Assembly (NCBI GenBank): GCA_036170915.1
Contig: JAVHQC010000036.1
Location: 64,001 to 128,000 of the forward strand
Reading direction: 5' to 3'
From: Cyanobacteria bacterium auto_48_18
GTDB lineage: Bacteria; Cyanobacteriota; Vampirovibrionia; Obscuribacterales; Obscuribacteraceae
Length of the DNA: 64,000 nucleotides
Part shown: positions 4,776 to 17,802 of the stretch, piece after piece
Layout of the letters: every line of letters starts with the position of its first letter
Numbering within the stretch: position 1 is the stretch's first letter
Notes under the pieces: model-generated
What the model saw: only the letters and a program-made list of their open reading frames with translations
Told to the model about the DNA's origin: nothing
Databases searched by the model: none
Translations under genes and position numbers: made by a program

Positions 4776-6428
4776 ATGCCTAAAGCCAGTCACAGTTTAG
4801 ATTCAAGTACAGGCGCCGAAAAGAATTTCGATGCTCAACTCAACAGTAAACTGGCAGACGAATCAATCAGCACTCGCTTACTTGCCTCTTTAGGTACCGG
4901 CGATGCTTCCAAACCGGCTCGCACCATGACAAAAGCCGCTGTTGTCGTCGAAGGCACTTTGACCGGTCTCGTTACCCATGGCGTGTCAGAAGCAGCTAAC
5001 AACCCCGGCCGATTCGGCGCTGAAATTTTAGGCGCCACCGCTCTCACGGTTGCCATGAAAGGCCCATCTTGGGTCAAACTCCCGGCTCTGGGAGTTGTGG
5101 CTGTTGGTACATACGCATTCGGTGCGCACGCGCTTGAGTCGGGCCTTAAGGCGGCGTCGATTACACAAAACATGACCGAAGGCAATCTGGCCGAAAGTCG
5201 TGCTGCAATCAGTGAAACCTTAGGACCTCTGGCCTTTGACTCGCTACTTATGGTCGGCTCAGGCTACGCTGGCACCAAGCTGGCCGGTGTTTTACCAAAA
5301 AGACTGCCCACCGTATCTTTTGAAATGTCTCCGCAACTGGCTTTTGAAGGCGGCGCCATGGCAACCTCTGGGCCTCGTTTGCGCTTTGACTATGCACCTG
5401 AAAGTGTGGGCGCAAAAGACAATATCATGGCCATGAGCAACTCCCATGACGGAACTGGTGGTGGCAGCTCGAGCAAGCACATACAAAAAGATGGCTACAA
5501 GATAGTTTCATCTCGCGGTTCGCGTGGTGAAGACGTGCAGCTGGTCGATCAGATGCCGGCAATGAAACCTGTAGAGCTTCTTCATGGTGACCATTCGATT
5601 TCAAATATTCGCGCGAACGGCAAAGTTACCATCGGATTTCCTACCGGCGAAGCGCGTATGTTCGACCTCGGAAAACCAATTAAACGGGTTACCGTAAGTG
5701 AATACGCTGGCGGTCAAAAACAGTATCGTCTCAATGAAACAGCTTTGCCCAATATGGAAGTGAACAATCTCAATCACGAAGTCAAAGCAGTTTTAGCCAA
5801 CGGCGATAAATTGCACATGGTCGACAATGTGCCAGATGGCCACATGAATTTCAATCACCAGGACGGCCTCAAATCATGGGTGGAATATTCAGGGCGGCTG
5901 GTTTTCCAATTGCCCAATGGTGTTTTGACAGAAGCGGTTATCCCCAGCAAGATTGCCAATATAAAGCTCACAGAGCGACTTGACGGCAGTAAGCTTTTTG
6001 AATTTCTAAGCCCTGAAGGTACTGTTCTACCTCAAAAAGTAGAATTGCCATCAACTGCAGCCAAAGCCAAATCTTTTGATGAAATCTCTCAGTGGCGTGA
6101 TTTGAAAAATTACCTCGCCGGTCGCCCCAACACCAGTGGTACCAGCCATGGTTTTGAATTGCATCGTGTGGAGCCTGATGCTGGTGGTGCAATTCATCAG
6201 CAGCAGTCGCATAAAGAGAGCTTCCCGTTTTGGAATCCAAAGCTCAGATCGCAATCAACTGAAAGAGCTATGGCTCAGCACGTTGCTGGTGTTGATCCGC
6301 GCACCATGCGTGGCAATGATCTGGAAACACCAGCCGACATGATGTTGGCCCAGCAAGGCCACAGCTGGATTACAAAGAGATATCTTGATGGCCTTGATCG
6401 TCAAGACAGTCCTTATGGCAATCACTAA
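4776..6428 (+). CDS. Hypothetical protein with a Gly/Ala-rich hydrophobic N-terminal region and a beta-rich C-terminal region
   Basis: 550-aa ORF; no family recognised. Confidence 0.7.
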   Translation: MPKASHSLDSSTGAEKNFDAQLNSKLADESISTRLLASLGTGDASKPARTMTKAAVVVEGTLTGLVTHGVSEAANNPGRFGAEILGATALTVAMKGPSWVKLPALGVVAVGTYAFGAHALESGLKAASITQNMTEGNLAESRAAISETLGPLAFDSLLMVGSGYAGTKLAGVLPKRLPTVSFEMSPQLAFEGGAMATSGPRLRFDYAPESVGAKDNIMAMSNSHDGTGGGSSSKHIQKDGYKIVSSRGSRGEDVQLVDQMPAMKPVELLHGDHSISNIRANGKVTIGFPTGEARMFDLGKPIKRVTVSEYAGGQKQYRLNETALPNMEVNNLNHEVKAVLANGDKLHMVDNVPDGHMNFNHQDGLKSWVEYSGRLVFQLPNGVLTEAVIPSKIANIKLTERLDGSKLFEFLSPEGTVLPQKVELPSTAAKAKSFDEISQWRDLKNYLAGRPNTSGTSHGFELHRVEPDAGGAIHQQQSHKESFPFWNPKLRSQSTERAMAQHVAGVDPRTMRGNDLETPADMMLAQQGHSWITKRYLDGLDRQDSPYGNH

Positions 6429-6430
6429 AA

Positions 6431-7051
6431 TCAGCCGATGGCGTCTTTAAGAGCACTATGCGCAGCCAGATATTTAGTGGTAATCGAAAGCACCTTAGCC
6501 TCTTGAGTTAGCCTGCCATGCGTGTCTTGCAGCTCCAGTAAAGCTTGCTGGTCTTCAGGTACACCATACATGGTGCCGGCCACCCAGTAAGACAAACTGA
6601 GTGGGTCTGATGGTAAATCTTCCGGCAGCTCAACCTCTTTATCAGTTAGCTTGCCGCTGAGTTTTAGAATATTTTTGATACATTCTAAAACTTCCTCAGT
6701 CACCTGGTCGAGATCTTCGCTACAGGGGCCGTCTTCAAGCCATTCGATTTCGCCTTGCAGGTATGGCAGATCTTCAATAGTGCGCAGCACTTTGAAGCGC
6801 CTTCTACCCTGAGTGAGAATATTCATGCGGCCATCGGGCAACTTTTCGCATTCTAAAATTTCGGCAGAAGAACCAACTGAGGCCGCTTGTGAGCTGCGTG
6901 GATCGTAGAGAAGCACACCAAAAATTTTGTCACCAGTCATAATTTTCGCAACCATTTGCCGGTAGCGAGGTTCGAAAATATGCAGTGGCAGCGGCGAGCC
7001 TGGAAAAAGCACCACATCAGGCAGTGGAAATAAAGGAATAATTTGTGTCAA
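6431..7051 (-). CDS. Lon peptidase N-terminal (substrate-binding) domain protein
   Basis: IPLFPLPDVVLFPGSPLPLHIFEPRYRQM; LPDGRMNILTQGRRRF. Confidence 0.92.
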   Translation of the reverse strand: MTQIIPLFPLPDVVLFPGSPLPLHIFEPRYRQMVAKIMTGDKIFGVLLYDPRSSQAASVGSSAEILECEKLPDGRMNILTQGRRRFKVLRTIEDLPYLQGEIEWLEDGPCSEDLDQVTEEVLECIKNILKLSGKLTDKEVELPEDLPSDPLSLSYWVAGTMYGVPEDQQALLELQDTHGRLTQEAKVLSITTKYLAAHSALKDAIG

Positions 7052-7066
7052 CCACTGTCTCCAGAG

Positions 7067-8086
7067 CTATGATCGGCCCGCATTGCCAATTGAGGGCGGC
7101 CTGACAGGCGTATAAGCGCAGCAACCAGGTGCGCACTTATCACTGTTATCAGCCACGTTAGTTGATCTTAGTCGTTCTTCGACCATATCTCCCATCATTT
7201 TTACAAAATTAGCATTGGTGCCGGCCGTGCTGGTGCGCACAAATTGCATGCCAAGCTCACCCGCAAGGTCTTTCGCCTCGGTGTCCAGGTCGTAAAGAAT
7301 CTCCATATGATCAGAAATGAAGCCGATGGGATGAACCAGAACATTTTTAGTGCCCTGCTCAACGAGAGTGCGCATATGGTCCAAGATATCTGGCTCTAGC
7401 CATGGCTGGGCGGCAGGCCCGCTGCGGCTCTGGTAGACGAGTTTATAGTCAGTGATGCCGAGCTCTGAGGCAACTTTGTCACAATTTTCTTGCAGCTGTT
7501 TTACATAATCGCAGTTGTCAGCCATAGCCATAGGTATGCTGTGAGCGGTAAAGGCTACATGCACCTGAGAACGATTCTGCACTGGAAACGTCTCCAGGCC
7601 TGCTTTGACGTGCTCAATATTTGCTAGAACAAAAAGCGGATGTTTGTAATAGACAGGAATTTTGTCAATCTGCAAATCTTCAGCCTCGGCTTCAACCTTG
7701 GCTTTCTCAATATCTTCCAGATACTGTCTGCAACCAGAATATGAACTGTAGGCAGACGTGACGAAGGTGAGCACCCGTTTGATGCCCACCTCCTTCATCT
7801 GTCTGAGCGTATCAGTCAAAAGCGGATGCCAGTTGCGATTGCCCCAGTAAATCGGCAATGAAATGGAACGCAATTTCAATTCACTTTCAAGCGCGGCAAT
7901 CAACTGGCGATTCTGCTCGTTAATTGGGCTGACGCCTCCGAAGCGCTCGTAGTGATGAGCAACTTCTTTCATGCGCGCTTCAGGCACGTTTTTGCCCCGC
8001 AATACATTGGCTAGAAACGGCATTACGTCTGCCATTCCTTCAGGGCCGCCAAATGAAAGAAATAGCACGGCATCGTAATTTTTCAT
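7067..8086 (-). CDS. hemH: Ferrochelatase with a C-terminal Cys cluster
   Basis: SFGGPE, GGVSPIN, YWGNRNWHP, FTAHSIP, YQSRSGP...WLEPD, PIGFISDHMEILYDLD; C-terminal CAPGCC. Confidence 0.95.
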   Translation of the reverse strand: MKNYDAVLFLSFGGPEGMADVMPFLANVLRGKNVPEARMKEVAHHYERFGGVSPINEQNRQLIAALESELKLRSISLPIYWGNRNWHPLLTDTLRQMKEVGIKRVLTFVTSAYSSYSGCRQYLEDIEKAKVEAEAEDLQIDKIPVYYKHPLFVLANIEHVKAGLETFPVQNRSQVHVAFTAHSIPMAMADNCDYVKQLQENCDKVASELGITDYKLVYQSRSGPAAQPWLEPDILDHMRTLVEQGTKNVLVHPIGFISDHMEILYDLDTEAKDLAGELGMQFVRTSTAGTNANFVKMMGDMVEERLRSTNVADNSDKCAPGCCAYTPVRPPSIGNAGRS

Positions 8087-8325
8087 TTTAGATTACTGGT
8101 CAATTTATCGAGCACTTCACCCTCTTGTGGAAAACGGCCGGTTTGCTTTTTAGAGAAAATCAAATTGCCGTCAACCTCTACTTCGAAAACGCCACCAGAA
8201 GACTGATGTATTGTTGTTGGATAGTTAAGTAGTTTGTTGATATCGGCTGCCAAACTGACAGCCCTAGATTTGTATCCTCAAGAACCACAAAAAGTTATGG
8301 ATACGTTTGGTTTATGCTCGCTCAT
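8083..8325 (-). CDS. Rdx-family (SelW/SelT/SelH) selenoprotein, 80 aa, CxxU motif, Sec at UGA 8278-8280; absent from the ORF track
   Basis: My translation: MSEHKPNVSITFCGS-U-GYKSRAVSLAADINKLLNYPTTIHQSSGGVFEVEVDGNLIFSKKQTGRFPQEGEVLDKLTSNLK; AAGGAG RBS at 8331-8336; SGGxFEV.VDG.LIFSK...GRFP is the Rdx signature. Confidence 0.93.
8245..8263 (-). promoter_or_regulatory. Candidate bacterial SECIS hairpin of the Rdx selenoprotein
   Basis: Minus strand GGCUGUC-AGUUU-GGCAGCC: 7-bp stem starting 14 nt after the UGA with G near the 5' side of the loop; GAUA/UAUC may form a lower stem. Confidence 0.75.
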
Positions 8326-8342
8326 ATTGTCTCCTTTTGTTA

Positions 8343-8786
8343 TCACTCTAAAAAATCATTGTTGCGGATGTAGAGCTGTAGCTCTTCAAGATGAGTAACT
8401 TCATCTAAAATAATGGCTTCGTACATCAATTTAAGCACGATATCTTTTTGAAACTCGCGCAACTGCTCTTCATACATTTGAATGTGGCTTTCTTCCATGG
8501 CGATGTCTTCTTGCAGCATTTCAAGAAGAGTTTGCTCACCAGGTTCGCCTACTTCTTCCATTCTTACTGATGGGTGACCACCAAGCGCCACTATTTTTTC
8601 ACCCAGATGAGTGGCGTGCACCATTGAGCCCTGCACCAGACTGCGGAACAGCTTGACGAGCGGCCCGCGCCCGGGACCAAGCACGATGAATGAATGATGC
8701 AGATATCTGACTAGGCCAGCCAGCTCGCGCTCTAACGCCAGATTGAGGGCGGCAATTACTCTTTTCTTGTCAACTGTTGTTTCCAC
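8343..8786 (-). CDS. Bacterioferritin-like / ferritin-like four-helix protein
   Basis: LNLALERELAGLVRYLHHS...HATHLGEKIVALGGHP...MEE...DEVTH. Confidence 0.85.
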   Translation of the reverse strand: METTVDKKRVIAALNLALERELAGLVRYLHHSFIVLGPGRGPLVKLFRSLVQGSMVHATHLGEKIVALGGHPSVRMEEVGEPGEQTLLEMLQEDIAMEESHIQMYEEQLREFQKDIVLKLMYEAIILDEVTHLEELQLYIRNNDFLE

Positions 8787-8865
8787 AGCTTAATCCCCGC
8801 CTTGTGCGATAAATGGTAGATATAAATCCAATGATTAGTCCCATAATTTTAACTCACAGAATCAA

Positions 8866-10230
8866 ATGCAGACACTAACTAATATCAAGAGGACGCTCGC
8901 CTTTTCCCTGGTTCTTGCAGGGGCGGTTGCCTTCTTTGCACCCTTAGCGTGGGCTGCTGCTGAGAACGATATGTCAGTAAGACCACTGGCAGGAACATTG
9001 AACAATACGGCCGTGCTTAATAGTAATTGCCCTGAACTGGTGACTGGTGAGGGCATTTTGGTATCAACACTGTGTGGAGACGGCCGCGACGTACCGCAAA
9101 ATCACCTGAATTTCAAATTTAAAAATGACTTTGCTCTCTTCTTTCACCATATCAATAAGCAGAGCGAGGAAGACGCCAAGAAGACACTTTACGTTAGCTG
9201 GATTGCTTTCAATCCGCAGAAAAAAGCTGCCAAATTAATCGTTTCTGAAGAAGCTTCTTATCTGAGCCAACCTGATGCTCCTTTCGTCGAACGTCCGGCT
9301 TTAGCTCCCGATCCCGATAATATTCTTTATTCAGGCCCAGGAGACAGACTGACAGCTGATTTTATTCATGGCGCAAGATCAGCACAAGATTTACCCCTGA
9401 CTGTAACTGTGCCGGCGGGCGAAATGGCCATCGTCAGGCAAATGGATGTGCCTGTGGCAGATTTAAAATTTCACCATAACGGCCGTTCATTTTATGCTCG
9501 CGGCAATATCCAAGGGGCTCTTAATATGGCCACCATTGCAACTTTTTCAGAGTTAGGCCCACCTTCGTTGGCAGAGCTTGAAGCACTATTGCAGCGCTCG
9601 CTTTTAGCTCAACCTAGAGAGTACGAAAAGCTGGCGCCTACACCGGATGATTTTAAAGGTCGTTTTGTTTATGGCCGAGTGGCCGGAGTGCAAAAGGGAG
9701 CAAAAATTGAAGCTGCCCACAGCGTCACTCTTAGTAAAGCCAGTGAGGTGACGCGCAATTTTCCCATCAGTGCGCTAGTTAAGGGAACATTCGGCACCGG
9801 CGAAATTCAAAGTGCACCGCTTTTGCGCCGCTACCCCGACACCGCATATAGTGCCCATGGTAACTACTGCGTTGATTATAAAGTCAACTTGACCATCCAC
9901 AATAAAGATTACATCAAACGCAAGCTCTATGTCGGTTTTGATTGCCCGCTTAAAACAGACATAGATGAAATGAAGTATGCCGAACTGCCTGAAAAAGCAG
10001 TATTTTTTCGCGGTTCGCTGAAAGTTTCATCTGAACAATATGAGCGCTTTTATCATTTTGTACTACACAAAGGAGAAGCGCTTGAGCCCTTTGAGAGTTT
10101 TGAAATCGAACCAGGGCAGACACGTACTGTCACCGTGGAACTATTTTATCCACCAGATGCGACACCACCCCAGCTGCTTAAATTTTACAGCCCGCAATCT
10201 GAAAGCGAAGTTTCACCAGGGGCGATTTGA
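8866..10230 (+). CDS. DUF3370-family exported protein
   Basis: Signal peptide; VRPLAG.L...NSN.PE...GILVST; YGRVAGVQ; AY.AHGNY; YPPDATPPQ. Confidence 0.8.
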   Translation: MQTLTNIKRTLAFSLVLAGAVAFFAPLAWAAAENDMSVRPLAGTLNNTAVLNSNCPELVTGEGILVSTLCGDGRDVPQNHLNFKFKNDFALFFHHINKQSEEDAKKTLYVSWIAFNPQKKAAKLIVSEEASYLSQPDAPFVERPALAPDPDNILYSGPGDRLTADFIHGARSAQDLPLTVTVPAGEMAIVRQMDVPVADLKFHHNGRSFYARGNIQGALNMATIATFSELGPPSLAELEALLQRSLLAQPREYEKLAPTPDDFKGRFVYGRVAGVQKGAKIEAAHSVTLSKASEVTRNFPISALVKGTFGTGEIQSAPLLRRYPDTAYSAHGNYCVDYKVNLTIHNKDYIKRKLYVGFDCPLKTDIDEMKYAELPEKAVFFRGSLKVSSEQYERFYHFVLHKGEALEPFESFEIEPGQTRTVTVELFYPPDATPPQLLKFYSPQSESEVSPGAI

Positions 10231-10243
10231 AAAGTACCAGATA

Positions 10244-11365
10244 CTAAGGCGCACTAGAATTTATTGCCTGATCGAGATCCTTCCAGAGATCGCTTGCATC
10301 CTCGATACCAACACTGATTCTCAAAAGTGCCGGCGGCAAATGACCTTGTCCAGGAATTGCCGCCCTGCGCTCAATAGTCGACTCGACTGCTCCCAAGCTG
10401 GTGGCATGTCTGATTAATTGCACGTTCTTGCAGACAGCATCTGCAAAATTTGCACTGCCTGCCACATCAAATGAAATTATGCTGCCAAAACCTTTAAGGA
10501 CTCTTTTAGCCGTTTCATGCGTTGCATGTGACGGTAGTCCTGGATAACGAACTTGGGTCACCAAGCCATGTCCGGAAAGTTTCTCAGCCAGAAATTGAGC
10601 CGTTTGCTGAGCCCGCTCCAGTCGCAGAGCCAAAGTGCGTACACCACGAACAGCCAAAAATGACTCAAGCGTGCCGGGAGTAGCCCCTGTCAATTCGCGA
10701 GATTTCCGCAAGCCATGCCACAGTGTTGCATCCCTTGTGGTGGCAACACCTGATAAAAGATCCGAGTGACCGCCAATGAATTTTGTCGCTGACTGTATCG
10801 AAACGGTGGCACCAAAATCGAGCGGTTGTTGGTTTAAGGGAGTTGCGAACGTATTGTCAACTGCTAAAATCGCTCCTGGTTTGCGAGGCGACGTACAGAT
10901 TTTGTCGATATCGACAACCGCGAGCAGCGGATTTGACGGAGACTCAAGCCAAACAAGGTCGGCGTTTACGCAGGCGTTGATCCAACCTTGTGTGTCTTCC
11001 ACAGGTATCCGTAATACTTTCCAGCGCCCTTTTTCCGCACCCGAAAGCACCAGGCCTGCTACACCCTGATAGCAGTCGTCCGGAAGTGCAACTACGGCTC
11101 CAATCGTAAGCTGGTCAAAAACTGCAGCTATAGCAGCCATACCCGAAGAAAAAGCGACCGCTTTGCCTGTCTCAAGCCCGCCTACGATATCTTCCAGGGC
11201 CTCCCAGGTTGGTGTGCCATCATCGCGAGAATATTCGCGTCCGCTGCCTATAATGAAGTTTGATGCTGGCACCATCGGAACGTTCAATGGTGACCCGGCT
11301 TCCAAAAACCTGCCAGCTCCAACAAGCCAGGACGCCGGTTGAATTTCTGAGGGACGCTTTTTCAA
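10244..11365 (-). CDS. PLP-dependent trans-sulfuration enzyme (cystathionine gamma-synthase/lyase family)
   Basis: FSSGMAA, WLESPSNP, VDNTFATP, SATKFIGGHSD, TSLGAVES, LRISVGIE; start taken as the TTG overlapping the upstream stop (track gives 11416). Confidence 0.9.
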   Translation of the reverse strand: MKKRPSEIQPASWLVGAGRFLEAGSPLNVPMVPASNFIIGSGREYSRDDGTPTWEALEDIVGGLETGKAVAFSSGMAAIAAVFDQLTIGAVVALPDDCYQGVAGLVLSGAEKGRWKVLRIPVEDTQGWINACVNADLVWLESPSNPLLAVVDIDKICTSPRKPGAILAVDNTFATPLNQQPLDFGATVSIQSATKFIGGHSDLLSGVATTRDATLWHGLRKSRELTGATPGTLESFLAVRGVRTLALRLERAQQTAQFLAEKLSGHGLVTQVRYPGLPSHATHETAKRVLKGFGSIISFDVAGSANFADAVCKNVQLIRHATSLGAVESTIERRAAIPGQGHLPPALLRISVGIEDASDLWKDLDQAINSSAP

Positions 11366-12891
11366 TTTGATACTCCAGAATATGTCTCTAATAATCCCTT
11401 TTCTTCCCGCCGCCACCAGTGGCCGGTTTTAAAGATAGTTGCTGGGGTCTCCAACTTATAATTGAAGATTCTTACACGCAAAAATTTGGGTGGCTCTTGA
11501 TTAAAAGGATTAGTCTGCACCAAACTCAAGACACTCTTGTCGTTGCGAGATAAGGCGCTAAGAAAGCTAACAAACCAGCGGCTTGGCTGCATTCCAGCCT
11601 GAGCATTGAGTGCTTCGAACCAGAGTTGCCAATCAAGACGTGGCATGTGTGGCGCTACTACCGGCAGTGGCCTATCGAGAGCGCCGATTTTGTAATGAAA
11701 TTCATATGCTCTGTAGTTCGTACCGTCGCTACTGCCTTCAATAATTAGCTCAGGCCGCTCCCTGGTCATGCTGGCAAAGAGGCCATAGCCTGCTGATATG
11801 CCCCAGCTCTGGCACAATGAATATGCAAATCTGGCTGGAGCAGGCAACATGTAGAAAAATTCACGGCCTGACGTAGTTAAGGCCAGGCTTATCGAGCTCG
11901 CAAATACAATAATGGTCATGGCCGGATAAACCATTAGCTTTTCCAGCACGATAAGACCCTTGCCGCTATTGTCTTTAAATGAAGCCGATTGACCAAGAAG
12001 CCAGTTTTGCAGCCATGTGAGGCGCAAAGTAGTCAAAAATTTCTCCAGATCTTTTTCTTGCAGCCAGGAGAGTGTCAGGGCGAAACTCAATAGATTGAAA
12101 AATCCGTAATTGCCAGAACAAGCAATGGCAACTTGCAAAAGACAAAAGAGAATTGCGGCAAATCGGCGCAGGGTAGCGGTGGTAAAGAGCAAGAAGGGCA
12201 CAAGCACTTCGATTATTAGAGTTGCCGCACAAGCCGCTTGGCTCACTAGAAGTGGCATCTGCTGACAAAATATAGATAGTGGCGTTGGTAGTGGCTGCGT
12301 TTCAAAATGATAGGTGAGCGCGGTTAGACTGAGCCAGCTCGAATCATTTGCCGGCTCAGTAAAAAGCTTGACGTAACCAGATGAGAACATTAAGCGGAAA
12401 GTTAACCAGGCAAGCGCTAAAACGGCCAGGTTGCGGCTTTTGGATGAAAAAGAGAAGAGTTGACTGCGGCCGAGAAAAATGGAAATGAATCCACTTTCAA
12501 GCAAAAGCATGTCCCATTGAAAAGAGAGAAAATCTTGGCCCACTGAAACTATAGACAAATAGCAAAGATAAAGTGCAAGGAGCACAAAGGGCTCAAGCAC
12601 TGCAAAGAAGAGCATCAGCGAGAGCAAACATCCCACCACCGTGACAGCTAGAAGAGTATTGAAATGCGGAGCAAAAAGTAAAAAGGAGGGCGAGCTGAGT
12701 AAGCCAGGCACAATAATATTCTGCTGTGATTGCGCTGCCTGTGCAAACAATGCCGTCACCGGAGCAATGCCTTGATCTCCATACAACCCTTGTAGTTGCG
12801 GCAGCAGCGAGGCAAAAGCACAGAAGTAGACTACTGCTAGAAGTCGCAGATATAGAGCAATAATCAGATCTGGAGATTTTTGCAGAATCAA
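11362..12891 (-). CDS. Lipase maturation factor (LMF) family membrane protein
   Basis: GQDFLSFQWDMLLLESGF; FRLMFSSGYVKL; YHFETQPLPTP; RPELIIEGS; PHMPRLDWQLWF. Confidence 0.92.
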   Translation of the reverse strand: MILQKSPDLIIALYLRLLAVVYFCAFASLLPQLQGLYGDQGIAPVTALFAQAAQSQQNIIVPGLLSSPSFLLFAPHFNTLLAVTVVGCLLSLMLFFAVLEPFVLLALYLCYLSIVSVGQDFLSFQWDMLLLESGFISIFLGRSQLFSFSSKSRNLAVLALAWLTFRLMFSSGYVKLFTEPANDSSWLSLTALTYHFETQPLPTPLSIFCQQMPLLVSQAACAATLIIEVLVPFLLFTTATLRRFAAILFCLLQVAIACSGNYGFFNLLSFALTLSWLQEKDLEKFLTTLRLTWLQNWLLGQSASFKDNSGKGLIVLEKLMVYPAMTIIVFASSISLALTTSGREFFYMLPAPARFAYSLCQSWGISAGYGLFASMTRERPELIIEGSSDGTNYRAYEFHYKIGALDRPLPVVAPHMPRLDWQLWFEALNAQAGMQPSRWFVSFLSALSRNDKSVLSLVQTNPFNQEPPKFLRVRIFNYKLETPATIFKTGHWWRREEKGLLETYSGVSN

Positions 12892-13409
12892 TTTAAAAGA
12901 GCGGTGCCGTTGTTATAAATTTTGGGCCACATAGCTTTAAGCCAATAAGTAAAGTGATCAGGGTTGGCTTGCATTGCACTGTCTAATTGGGCCAGTGAAA
13001 ACCAGCGCCAGTCCATTACCTCAGCACTATTGGGCATGGCATCGCCGCTAAAGCGGCCAAGAAATACGTGATCAAATTCGTGTTCAATCAACCCTTTGTC
13101 GAGTTGCACCTGATAAATAAACGAAAAAGCAAATTGTAAATCGGCGATGATACCCATCTCAAATTGCAAGCGAATAGCAGCAGCATCAACTGTGGTTTGA
13201 CCCGGCTCAGGATGCGTGCAACAGGTATTGCTCCACTTACCTGGCGAATGATATTTTTCCATAGCGCGTTGCTGCAATAATATTTCGCCTTGATCATTGA
13301 AAATGATTACTGACACAGCTCGGTGTAGCCGACCTGTCTGGTGAGCCAGCAGCTTCTCTGACTGCCCTAGCTCTTGGTCTAGAGTGTCAACCAGAATTAC
13401 ATCGGTCAT
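12888..13409 (-). CDS. idi: Isopentenyl-diphosphate delta-isomerase, type 1
   Basis: LHRAVSV...LLQQRA..KYHSPG.WSNTCCTHP; EHEFDHVF. Confidence 0.95.
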   Translation of the reverse strand: MTDVILVDTLDQELGQSEKLLAHQTGRLHRAVSVIIFNDQGEILLQQRAMEKYHSPGKWSNTCCTHPEPGQTTVDAAAIRLQFEMGIIADLQFAFSFIYQVQLDKGLIEHEFDHVFLGRFSGDAMPNSAEVMDWRWFSLAQLDSAMQANPDHFTYWLKAMWPKIYNNGTALLN

Positions 13410-14518
13410 GGTTTGCCCACTTTATCTAGCCAGGCTGTCAAACGAGTAAAAGCAGTAGATTTAGAGTCGACGGAAACATTCGCCGATATCGGGGGCGAAA
13501 TGCTGCTGCTCTTTTCAGGGCTTTTTGCGCGACCAAGTGCGTTGAGTGCATGGAATGTCAGCTCTCTAAAAATTTGGAAGTCAGATTCATCCCATTTTCC
13601 GGAGGCAGTGGGCACCAGCGTTTCCATTTGCCGAACGGTTTCTAAAGACAACTGATTGTTGTCTACAAAATTAGCTATGTGAGACGCTAAGATGGTAGTC
13701 GCTTTCTGCAAGAATTCTGCCTCTGTCTGACCATGCAAAGGCAGCCTGTTTTGGAAAAGCTTCATCAGCCTGATGGTGTCCACAGCGTGCAGCATATGCC
13801 TAGCATTGGCTGTGGAAGTTGAAGCAGCATGGAATCTAAAATCGCACAATTCTTGATCGACAAAATAATATTGGCCGCCGTTAATTATCCGCAACCAATA
13901 CTCGAGATCACCCAGCTGATGAAATTTAGTATTGAAACCATCACCAACTAAATTGCTGCGAAATGCCACCGTACATGGTTCGCCAATAAAATTATCAATA
14001 TAAAGCAAAGAAGCTTTGATTACTTCGTCGGCGCTGACAGGCGTATTGACGGGAAAATACTTGGAGGCTGAATTGACCATGCCTTCCAGATTGATGGCAG
14101 CGCCAGACTCGTTTATCCAGCGACGTTTGACACTAACTAAGGCTACATCAGAAAAGTTTGTCAGTACATCATGTACCACATTCAGCATGTTAGCGTGAAG
14201 AATATCGTCTTGGGCAAAAGGTTTTACTACTGGTGCTTTTGCCAATTTGAGACAGGCATTGTAATTGGCGAACAAACCAAGATTGGTGGAGTTGCTTGAC
14301 CAGCGAATGCGCTTGTCTTGTTGACCATAGCGATCAATTATTTCAACAGAATTATCAGTGGAAGCATCGTCGCAGATGATCAACTCAAAATCACTAAGAG
14401 TCTGAGCTTGAATGCTTTCAATAGCTTCGTTCAAATATTTGGCGCCGTTATAAACCGGCATACAAACAGAAACTAATGGTGGCATTGTCTTTCCTTTAAA
14501 TGCATCATATAAGGTCAA
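13406..14518 (-). CDS. Glycosyltransferase family 2
   Basis: VSVCMPVYNGAKYL.EAIES...FELIICDDASTDNS; QDD; DLEYWLR. Confidence 0.9.
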   Translation of the reverse strand: MTLYDAFKGKTMPPLVSVCMPVYNGAKYLNEAIESIQAQTLSDFELIICDDASTDNSVEIIDRYGQQDKRIRWSSNSTNLGLFANYNACLKLAKAPVVKPFAQDDILHANMLNVVHDVLTNFSDVALVSVKRRWINESGAAINLEGMVNSASKYFPVNTPVSADEVIKASLLYIDNFIGEPCTVAFRSNLVGDGFNTKFHQLGDLEYWLRIINGGQYYFVDQELCDFRFHAASTSTANARHMLHAVDTIRLMKLFQNRLPLHGQTEAEFLQKATTILASHIANFVDNNQLSLETVRQMETLVPTASGKWDESDFQIFRELTFHALNALGRAKSPEKSSSISPPISANVSVDSKSTAFTRLTAWLDKVGKP

Positions 14519-14554
14519 AGGCTGCCGGTCATGAACCTCAGTTTAGAATCTAAT

Positions 14555-16069
14555 CTAATGTTCTTCAAGTTGTCTATTGCGCCCTTTGCAGTACCAGAAT
14601 ATGGGTATGCCAGCTAGAAGTATGACCAGGCCTGTCAATTGCGCTACCCAGTGAACACAAACAAAGGCTGCATAAGCCCAGACAGACATTGCGATGAGAG
14701 CCATCACCCAGGCTAGCAAATTGCCACTCTTGCCGATTCTAAAGGGCCTGGCGAGGTCAGGATCAGTATGACGAAGGCTGATCAGGCAAAATCCGTAGAG
14801 AATTGCCACAAAGGCGTACATAAATCCAAAAGTATCACCAAGGAAAGCGTAGGCATCAGGAAATAACTTAGTTCGCGCTACCAGATTTGCTCCGATGGCA
14901 ATAAGTGAGATAAACCAGAACTGGAACCACAATGAATATTTCGGCACCTGAGTGATTGGGTCAAGTTGGGCAAATTGAGAAGGAAAAAGTTTAGTTTCAG
15001 CCATGGAGTAGCTTACTCTCGCTGCTCCCAACAAGGCGGTAAAGCCGCAGCCAACGATGGATGCCACCACGCAGGCACTAAATAACTGACCGCAAAAGGC
15101 GCCACCCAGCCAACCGGCGAGGGCAGGGCAAGTCGCCTGCACTGTAGTACCAGGTACAAGCAGGGTGCTCTTATCGCCACTGAGCTCATATGGCGTACAA
15201 ACGCTCACGCTCAAACACATAATCAGATAAATTGCGGTGATTGATAGCAAAGTCAGGATCAGACCTCTAGGCACGCTGCTTTTGGCATCGGCCGTTTCAG
15301 ATGAGACACAGCACGATAACTCCAGAAATGAGAAACCGGCCATAGCAAGCATCAGTACCGAAGAAACGTTGGCAAAAAAGTCGCTGCCACCACTCGGATT
15401 TGAAAAATTCAAAGCATACTTAAATGACCATTGAGGCGAAGTAAAAACTAAGACTGCAAAAAGCACCACCATACCAAGTTTCATAATGGTAAAGATGTTG
15501 CTGGCACGGCTGGCTTTGCCTATGGGTAAAAGATTGAGAAAGGTGGTGGCACCAAAGAGGGCCAGAATTACTAAGGGCCCGAACCAGAGCGGAGTTTCTC
15601 CACTGCCCCAGATATTAGAGCCGAGTAAATTAGTCAAACCATTAGCCATACAGGCAAGGCCAACAATTAGTGATGACCAGAACAACCAACCCGTGAGAAA
15701 GCCTAAAAGCTCACCACTGGCTGGAAACACTCTTTTGAGAGCGTAATACTTAAATACATATGGCCCACCAGCAGTGGGAAACATGGAGGATAGCTCCATC
15801 AAAATCAAAGTCAAAGGCAATGACAAAACACCGGCCAAGAGCCAGGCGAACAGACAGGCGGCTGTGCCAGATCTTGCCAACATGGGGCCATGCATAAGCC
15901 AAGCCATTGAGCCAATAATGGTGCCAACACCGAGCATCCATGAGCCGAAAGAACTGATGCCGATCTTCAGGTTGGCACCAATTTGCAGTGGTGACAAACT
16001 TTTGCTTGCCGAAAGATCAGGTCCAAGCTCATCGGACATAGAATGTAAAGCTCCGCCACTATCTGGCAA
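14555..16069 (-). CDS. APC-family amino acid permease
   Basis: GTIIGS; ELSSMFPTAGGPY; about 12 TM helices; LRHTDPDLARPFR. Confidence 0.88.
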   Translation of the reverse strand: MPDSGGALHSMSDELGPDLSASKSLSPLQIGANLKIGISSFGSWMLGVGTIIGSMAWLMHGPMLARSGTAACLFAWLLAGVLSLPLTLILMELSSMFPTAGGPYVFKYYALKRVFPASGELLGFLTGWLFWSSLIVGLACMANGLTNLLGSNIWGSGETPLWFGPLVILALFGATTFLNLLPIGKASRASNIFTIMKLGMVVLFAVLVFTSPQWSFKYALNFSNPSGGSDFFANVSSVLMLAMAGFSFLELSCCVSSETADAKSSVPRGLILTLLSITAIYLIMCLSVSVCTPYELSGDKSTLLVPGTTVQATCPALAGWLGGAFCGQLFSACVVASIVGCGFTALLGAARVSYSMAETKLFPSQFAQLDPITQVPKYSLWFQFWFISLIAIGANLVARTKLFPDAYAFLGDTFGFMYAFVAILYGFCLISLRHTDPDLARPFRIGKSGNLLAWVMALIAMSVWAYAAFVCVHWVAQLTGLVILLAGIPIFWYCKGRNRQLEEH

Positions 16070-16080
16070 ACAATTTTACC

Positions 16081-17802
16081 CTAAGCATTATCACTCAGGC
16101 AGGCAAAATCATATCTTAGCGATTTGCCGATTTCATCGGTGGAAAGAGTCGCTGTGTCGCGCGGCAATAGTTTACTCATAGCAGCAGGACTACCGGCTAC
16201 GATTAGCTTCTGGCTTACCCTTCCAGCCAGCAGATACGTAAAATATTGCAGTTTCCACTCAGTCAACTTTTCAATAACAGGGTCAAGTCCAATTAAGATC
16301 ACCACCTTGGCGGTCAGCGCTCTAAACTGAAATAGAGAGGTCTCGAGAACAGTTGGTTTTCCTTGTGGTTTACTCAATTGACGACTGCTTTTCAATCTGC
16401 CGTCAAATTTGAAGCGCCGACTGCATTTTTCATTTCCGGCATGCAGAATGACGATATCACTGGCAGTATAGCCAGACGAAATCAGATCGCTAACAAGAAA
16501 CTCGACTGTTTCACACAACTCACCATCATTTCGAGTCTCATAAAGCTCCATTATTTCTCGGACGTTTGGTTTTCGATCAGGTAAAAGCATTTGCTCTAGA
16601 TCTAAAGTTCTTTTTGCAGTCGGTACCAGACTGAGACGATTGAAGGCCAGTAGTTGCGGATCGTAGAAATAGAGATAAAGCCCTTTGACGTTGTCTTTCA
16701 AACAGTGTTTGAGTGCTCGCCACATACTTGGACCGAAACAATGTCCTTCAATGGCAATTACTACATCGAACTGAATCTCTGGTCGCAATTGTGATGCTTC
16801 AACTAATAATTCAGGAAAGATTTCATTGAAAATTCTTGTACTGATGTATTTGGGAGTTTTCAAACTTGCAGCCTGAGCCGCCCAGTGACACAGTGCGTGA
16901 AAGGTCGATATTGTCAGTTCACCAGCCTGAAGAAGTTTTTCATTGTTTTCAAGATCAATGGCATATTGTTGACGTAGATGAACAGCTAACATGCGTGAGT
17001 GATTGACGAGTAAAACTTTCTTACCCGCAGCTGAAAGCTTCATGGCCAGACCATAAGCAATCTCGGTTTCGCCAATGCCATTGCCGCCGCATATATTTAT
17101 TGTGCTCACGTCTTCAGTCAGCATGCTTAGTTCATGCACCAGATTTGTCATCTTTCTATTTTGCCACTCTGGCTCAATTGAGGGCTTCTCAAGCTGATCG
17201 TCCGATGCAAAAAGCTCGGCTGCTCGCCGCTGCGCTCTTAAAACTTGATAGAGAGCTGAGCGCATGAATTTTGCCACTAGATCACTAAGCAGGCCTTCAA
17301 CCAGATCGCGCACTATCTTTGACTGCAGTCTCGCTTTTAACCTGATCAAAGTTTGTCTGGTTTCAAGAGCTGTCAGTCGCAATCTAAAGGCTATAGAACT
17401 ATTAGAACATGACTGACGACCATAAAATCCATAAAGCAATCTGGCCACCGTAAATAGACGTTTGCCTTCGTCAGTGGTGCCCATCTGCTTACTTAGTTGC
17501 TCAAACAATTCAGGACAAACCGGCGCATAATCGAGGTGTTTGAGAATTTGCACAGTAAGTGATTCACAGCCGATTTTCTCTAAAAGCATGTCAAATGTCA
17601 TTGGCGTATCGTAAATAGCGCTGAGCATGCGTTCAAAGGCTCTTAGCTGCACCATCTGCGCCAGATTCTTGATGATCACCGGTGCTGTTGATTGATCAAA
17701 TAACTCCGTGGGCAGTGGCTGAAGAGTCTCTGTATCTCTGTAATCATCAGAAGCTAACGCAGCACCAGCATGGGCGGTGAGAATTTCGACCATAATGTAC
17801 AC
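16081..17802 (-). CDS. Degenerate SF1 (UvrD-like) helicase-fold protein
   Basis: SF1 motif order retained but altered: GGNGIGET, STFHALC, DVVIAIEGH, YDPQ, SLFQFRAL...VVIL, YLLAGRV. Confidence 0.65.
   Translation of the reverse strand: MYIMVEILTAHAGAALASDDYRDTETLQPLPTELFDQSTAPVIIKNLAQMVQLRAFERMLSAIYDTPMTFDMLLEKIGCESLTVQILKHLDYAPVCPELFEQLSKQMGTTDEGKRLFTVARLLYGFYGRQSCSNSSIAFRLRLTALETRQTLIRLKARLQSKIVRDLVEGLLSDLVAKFMRSALYQVLRAQRRAAELFASDDQLEKPSIEPEWQNRKMTNLVHELSMLTEDVSTINICGGNGIGETEIAYGLAMKLSAAGKKVLLVNHSRMLAVHLRQQYAIDLENNEKLLQAGELTISTFHALCHWAAQAASLKTPKYISTRIFNEIFPELLVEASQLRPEIQFDVVIAIEGHCFGPSMWRALKHCLKDNVKGLYLYFYDPQLLAFNRLSLVPTAKRTLDLEQMLLPDRKPNVREIMELYETRNDGELCETVEFLVSDLISSGYTASDIVILHAGNEKCSRRFKFDGRLKSSRQLSKPQGKPTVLETSLFQFRALTAKVVILIGLDPVIEKLTEWKLQYFTYLLAGRVSQKLIVAGSPAAMSKLLPRDTATLSTDEIGKSLRYDFACLSDNA

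Follow-up and report, generated by a model that had tools for sequence, protein, structure and literature searches.

The window, by which we mean the whole 64,000-nt stretch of DNA analysed here, belongs to an Obscuribacterales MAG (G000; 86% complete) of an uncultured, non-photosynthetic cyanobacterial relative. As the initial annotation had it, four close-packed co-directional genes lie on the minus strand of positions 8786-6431, and every part of this operon belongs to a known family by Pfam and NCBIfam profile searches. The in-frame UGA, the ATGA overlap and the lack of a Shine-Dalgarno (SD) sequence before hemH had also been read correctly, as had the upstream sequence quoted with them. 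The features are as follows.

8866..10230, plus strand: divergent DUF3370 gene, the boundary of the operon (PF11850, E 1e-116)
8845..8851, minus strand: TAAAATT block in the divergent intergenic region, conserved upstream of ferritin-first and selW-first loci
8343..8786, minus strand: ferritin-like (bacterioferritin-related) gene, GTG start, 147 aa (PF00210, E 6e-18)
8331..8336, minus strand: SD of selW, AAGGAG, from the sequence (-8.9 kcal/mol)
8083..8325, minus strand: predicted SelW-like/Rdx selenoprotein gene (selW), ATG start, 80 aa, motif C-G-S-U, stop codon TGA at 8085-8083
8278..8280, minus strand: in-frame UGA, predicted selenocysteine codon 16 of selW, a UGA in 22/22 hemH-adjacent copies
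8245..8263, minus strand: predicted bacterial SECIS hairpin, loop about 21-22 nt past the UGA
8251..8253, minus strand: in-frame TTG within the SECIS loop, a possible weak restart reaching the overlap (ORF 8253-8083, SD -3.0 kcal/mol)
8083..8086, minus strand: ATGA overlap of the selW stop and the hemH start, from the sequence and the ORFs
7067..8086, minus strand: hemH, predicted coproporphyrin-type ferrochelatase (CpfC-like), ATG start, 339 aa, C-terminal C-x3-C-C motif
6431..7051, minus strand: stand-alone Lon substrate-binding-domain (Lon-N) gene, TTG start, 206 aa, own SD (PF02190, E 9e-38)

The ferritin-like gene is separated from selW by 17 nt and hemH from the Lon-N gene by 15 nt, and the spacing between selW and hemH is -4. 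The TAAAATT block is a candidate -10 element of the operon, or else of the divergent gene; it is absent among the sites listed by a sigma-70 promoter scan. At the other end, a 550-aa ORF (window 4776-6428, plus strand) converges on the Lon-N gene with 2 nt between the stop codons, and a Pfam search with it gave no match.

The product of hemH is predicted to be a coproporphyrin ferrochelatase with coproporphyrin III as its substrate. Like known CpfC (NF000689; PDB 28wn), it scores above the family cut-off (438 bits vs. 408), and among PDB entries it matches a coproporphyrin III ferrochelatase best (E 4e-81). The gene is the sole PF00762 match in G000. Because the genome also holds ChdC/HemQ (NF008913) and a HemY-type oxidase (TIGR00562), both above cut-off, the coproporphyrin pathway is the one predicted for this host. 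It differs from known CpfC in its Cyanobacteriota lineage and in its place behind a selenoprotein gene. The C-x3-C-C motif recurs in 35 of 37 HemH rows among those listed, one row being incomplete, and we take it to resemble the iron-sulfur ligands of actinobacterial ferrochelatases.

The ferritin-like protein is not a canonical bacterioferritin. It shares with bacterioferritins (TIGR00754; the small PDB 9qq4 type) the ferritin-like domain and the Met of the E-M-x-H motif, which is presumably their haem ligand, but its TIGR00754 score of 32.8 bits falls far under the cut-off of 125.55. In helix B, S-M-x-H replaces E-M-x-H in all 31 aligned homologues, with Ser at the ferroxidase Glu position that the nearest PDB chain, 9qq4, keeps as Glu; the ferroxidase centre is therefore incomplete and non-canonical. 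The link that had been drawn from selenium status to iron storage was not upheld. The ferritin-like gene precedes the UGA in the operon and is therefore out of reach of gating by read-through, and selenium gating of this gene was rejected; the Ser substitution and the absence of the gene from 17 of the 22 loci with selW next to hemH weaken the link further. A second ferritin-like paralogue (L140:1400-1861) belongs to the same lineage-wide S-M-x-H subfamily. PF00210 matches in G000 number four, none a canonical bacterioferritin and one Dps-like in look.

Selenocysteine decoding

Judged from its conservation, the hairpin and the decoding genes present, the UGA of selW is almost certainly a selenocysteine (Sec) codon. 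The encoded protein scores 65.5 bits with PF10262 and 62.6 bits with TIGR02174 (cut-off 34.2), and its PDB matches are of the Rdx family. Like the bacterial SelW-like/Rdx protein of Campylobacter jejuni, it is about 80 aa long and has C-x-x-U with an in-frame UGA. In bacterial SECIS elements the loop G lies 16-37 nt from the UGA, and the hairpin of selW has its loop within this range. It folds at -12.7 kcal/mol with a z of -4.75 for a hand-picked 23-nt piece, the z being -1.98 for the 61-nt region. The 33 distinct UGA-type sequences, from 43 loci, are invariant or nearly so at codons +7 to +9 (GTC 27/27, AGT 30/30, TTG 32/33) down to the synonymous sites, whereas flanking codons are free to vary. 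The hairpin is missing from 13/13 Cys-type Rdx paralogue loci. Codon and hairpin are thus both conserved, and the UGA stands far above chance. SelB would be expected to read the SECIS and insert Sec.

For C. jejuni selW, full-length translation is reported from Ribo-seq and peptides (10.1101/2022.11.09.515450). In contrast to that gene, selW of Obscuribacterales precedes a ferrochelatase gene, a context not found in the literature searched.

The decoding machinery of G000 comprises tRNA-Sec (75.8 bits vs. a cut-off of 47), selB and selD. selA was not found in this 86% complete genome by TIGR00474 or PF03841, and one could argue that its loss has left the UGA without Sec decoding and selW dying or reliant on near-cognate read-through. 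This we regard as very improbable. selA is present in 13/14 congeners and 31/36 family relatives. In the close relative G006, the contig with selA opens with 74 bases that match the terminal bases of G000 contig C27; for the other gene on this G006 contig, G000 offers a short paralogous match but no orthologue. Since this neighbour is likewise missing, selA likely lies in an assembly gap. Also against selA loss, tRNA-Sec, selB, selD, the SECIS and three further genes with UGA plus hairpin are all intact.

These three genes are paralogous ORFs of 44-48% identity (C22:441063-442460, minus; C16:90909-92045, plus; C22:55264-56436, minus) with signal-peptide-like N-termini. In the alignment their in-frame TGA codons coincide, each followed at 23 nt by the same hairpin. 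No Pfam family matched them at E 0.05; they may be thioredoxin-like. From these features they are probably selenoproteins, of a family possibly undescribed. A genome-wide screen of G000 for Sec genes gave 66 candidates, mostly noise, and its generic part missed selW itself. selD was rejected as a selenoprotein, there being no stop within its profile match; the gene directly after it (L017:730-1398, minus) looks to us like a YedF/SirA-DsrE selenium-metabolism protein.

A longer Rdx paralogue precedes another gene, which we call cmk-like from its sequence (L056:1474-1824 in G000:C29; also L062 and L063). Genera g1 and g19 have it as a Cys-type gene, other genera as a Sec-type gene with SECIS: a Sec/Cys switch in which the hairpin is lost along with Sec. 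UGA-type Rdx genes also occur in 12 genomes from other families of the phylum. In other Cyanobacteriota families (150 further genomes), none of 13 Rdx loci has a partner gene within about 1.5 kb. A GTDB scan with the selW alignment, its patterns too narrow for other phyla, returned 23 loci, nearly all from Obscuribacterales/Melainabacteria or unclassified; one, from a delta-proteobacterium, has none of the three partner genes.

Gene order and the selW-hemH junction

The order-wide sample comprised 107 genomes, 100 with hemH and 85 with an Rdx gene. A UGA-type selW lies directly upstream of hemH in 22 of the 100: 14 in the window's genus (in a fifteenth hemH is cut at the contig end), 6/6 in g19 and 2/2 in g44. 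All four genes stand together in five genomes (G000, G006, G009, G099 and G100). Other combinations occur among the loci listed: ferritin-selW-Lon-N without hemH (G123, G124), ferritin-selW alone (g16) and selW-Lon-N (G019, G028). In G031 the ferritin gene overlaps hemH and there is no selW. Since ferritin-first and selW-first loci share the TAAAATT block, one ancestral cluster with repeated losses is suggested.

SD pairing was scored against a generic anti-SD consensus, the 16S 3' end of the host not having been found, and an SD was counted as present at -3.5 kcal/mol or better. On this scale hemH scores +0.6 kcal/mol, selW -8.9, the ferritin-like gene -7.2 and the Lon-N gene -6.4. With a rough gene caller, whose starts are noisy, 145 of 2546 co-directional pairs in G000 are ATGA overlaps; an SD is lacking at 39% of these 145 and at 44% of all ATG starts. 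The overlap of selW with hemH and the missing hemH SD are thus not above chance.

At the 22 junctions the spacing is -4 in three, +2 in three, +10 in two, +21/+23 in two, +26 to +37 in eleven and +50 in one. The three overlaps (G000, G006 and G009) are all SD-less and form one clade with 100/99 support in the HemH tree (36 rows, without G017); the node above the trio does not polarise the change in spacing. Of the 19 non-overlapping loci, 17 have an SD of their own for hemH. G069 has an alternative TTG hemH start at -4. Conservation therefore splits: the gene order is kept in three genera and the overlap in one clade.

Similar junctions arise with or without Sec, since Cys-type Rdx paralogues also precede them: in G102 and G032 (2/9 Cys-type loci listed) such a gene is followed by the cmk-like gene through an SD-less ATGA overlap. 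In G024 and G122 a Sec-type Rdx gene stands before the cmk-like gene at +6/+8, again SD-less. Overall, a downstream ORF is overlapped in 5/56 distinct Sec-type Rdx loci, near the background of co-directional pairs in G000, and three of the five are the clade described here.

Selenium and ferrochelatase synthesis

The main claim of the initial annotation was that hemH translation may depend on Sec read-through in selW. It stands in part. The mechanics are plausible in G000, where some 190 nt separate the UGA from the hemH start, the stop/start overlap of a termination-reinitiation pair is present as ATGA at 8086-8083, hemH is SD-less and no other ferrochelatase was found. Loss of synteny or of the overlap in relatives had been named with the claim as its refutation; with the order kept but the overlap confined to one clade, this partly goes against the claim. 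Overlapping pairs were coupled in 13/14 published tests, with a variable need for an SD (PMC6728339), and for this reason ribosomes stopping at codon 16 probably lower hemH initiation in the clade. Re-initiation is almost lost across gaps of about 20 nt (PMC10666635), which leaves 14 of the 22 loci, with gaps of at least 21 nt, without tight coupling geometry and eight that could have it; one review lets weaker coupling last to about +40 (PMC12548453). These known -4 pairs share with the present junction the ATGA and the fact that an SD is not always needed. They differ in that here translation of the upstream gene has to pass a Sec codon, most relatives lack the overlap and the coupling is predicted from sequence.

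We consider it somewhat more likely than not that hemH depends measurably on Sec read-through in G000, as an incidental consequence of coupling of the usual kind. The reading that we favour, and hold to be probable with room for doubt, is that of an ordinary redox/iron-haem operon in which gene compaction has brought about a clade-restricted, incidental selenium dependence of hemH. One promoter would serve the ferritin-like gene, the Sec-containing SelW-like oxidoreductase, the coproporphyrin ferrochelatase and the Lon-N protein, genes most likely kept together for co-expression. In the clade the stop codon of selW would have moved onto the start of hemH, which would have lost its SD, and at least some of the ribosomes that begin hemH are probably those that have just completed selW. 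Under selenium shortage a larger share of ribosomes would halt at codon 16 and less ferrochelatase would be made, a drop buffered by leakiness of the UGA and by de novo initiation at the A/U-rich site. The selenium dependence would then be a passive outcome of compaction and not a selected sensor. The redox protein perhaps services the C-terminal cysteines of the ferrochelatase or iron delivery, which is speculative. Two other routes were tried and rejected: restart at the in-frame TTG at 8253 as the main route, because the codon lies within the hairpin and its SD is weak, and Rho-type polarity after the premature stop, which is unlikely because a search for rho found it in 0/41 genomes (the control was positive in 8/14).

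Some observations sit uneasily with a mere by-product. UGA is kept in every hemH-adjacent copy though the genomes carry Cys-type Rdx paralogues elsewhere, and besides the overlap trio the five loci at +2/+10 could couple, as could G069 from its alternative start. One alternative is a selected selenium sensor, in which selW is a leader gene whose read-through licenses translation of the sole ferrochelatase, by overlap here and by a short gap elsewhere, and matches haem to selenium-based redox protection. Haem in Obscuribacterales would then scale with selenium, and the device may recur at the cmk-like gene in G024 and G122. The direct adjacency of selW and hemH in 22 genomes of three genera, always with UGA, the spacing of +10 or less in 8/22 loci and, among the loci listed, the position of selW as first gene after the divergent neighbour in many that have no ferritin gene speak for such a sensor. 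So does a precedent: in Treponema primitia fdhF-Sec, expression downstream of the Sec codon is selenium-dependent, at the transcript level and within the gene (PMC3892789). There too, ribosomes stopping at the Sec UGA cut downstream expression. Unlike in fdhF-Sec, the candidate target hemH is a separate, selenium-free enzyme, the putative route is translational, and no rho was found. We nevertheless judge a selected sensor improbable. The wide gaps in most selW-hemH loci, the SD that hemH has of its own in nearly all non-overlapping loci, the lack of rho, the 78/100 hemH-bearing genomes without selW-hemH adjacency, the ferritin-hemH overlap of G031 and the lack of enrichment of overlaps after Sec-type Rdx genes all argue against it.

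A stronger competitor of incidental coupling, though itself unlikely, is that hemH is translated independently. Ribosomes would start de novo at an A/U-rich, SD-less site without structure, or an internal promoter would serve the gene; the overlap would be mere compaction and selenium would have no effect. In G000 the 60-nt region of the hemH start has a folding energy of -4.9 kcal/mol (z +0.29) and leaves the surroundings of the AUG unpaired, and 84% of ATGA junctions in this genome are more structured; because of this weak folding, coupling may be needless there. The frequency of SD-less ATG starts in G000, noisy as these starts are, agrees with de novo initiation, and a sole ferrochelatase would have reason for robustness. 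An AUGA overlap without coupling is on record for chloroplast atpB-atpE (PMC3241655). Against independence stands, besides the near-universal coupling of tested overlaps, the folding of the start regions in G006 and G009 at about -12 kcal/mol, which favours coupling in those two genomes. As for an internal promoter, the sigma-70 scan, a weak test, gave three promoter-like sites vs. 3.2 expected and none on the minus strand upstream of hemH.

If hemH output follows Sec read-through, the operon would be a small natural example of recoding at one codon that governs a core enzyme encoded next to it and free of selenium. Ready controls exist among the relatives, with the same gene pair at -4, +2, +10 and about +36 nt and with Cys-type paralogues. 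Neither the gene link of selW with hemH nor Sec use in Obscuribacterales was found in the literature searched, which covered few subscription papers; selenoproteome tables could already list the genes. Regardless of regulation, the Sec trait is widespread in Obscuribacterales, as the selA matches among family relatives indicate, in contrast to a review that lists Cyanobacteria, meaning photosynthetic members, among the lineages without Sec (PMC9312934).

A last observation concerns another contig of the genome. G000:C33 carries two tRNA clusters of nine genes each, at 15652-16458 on the minus strand (region about 8492-16458) and at 164122-165603 on the plus strand. They duplicate isotypes present elsewhere in G000 and are possibly mobile tRNA arrays.
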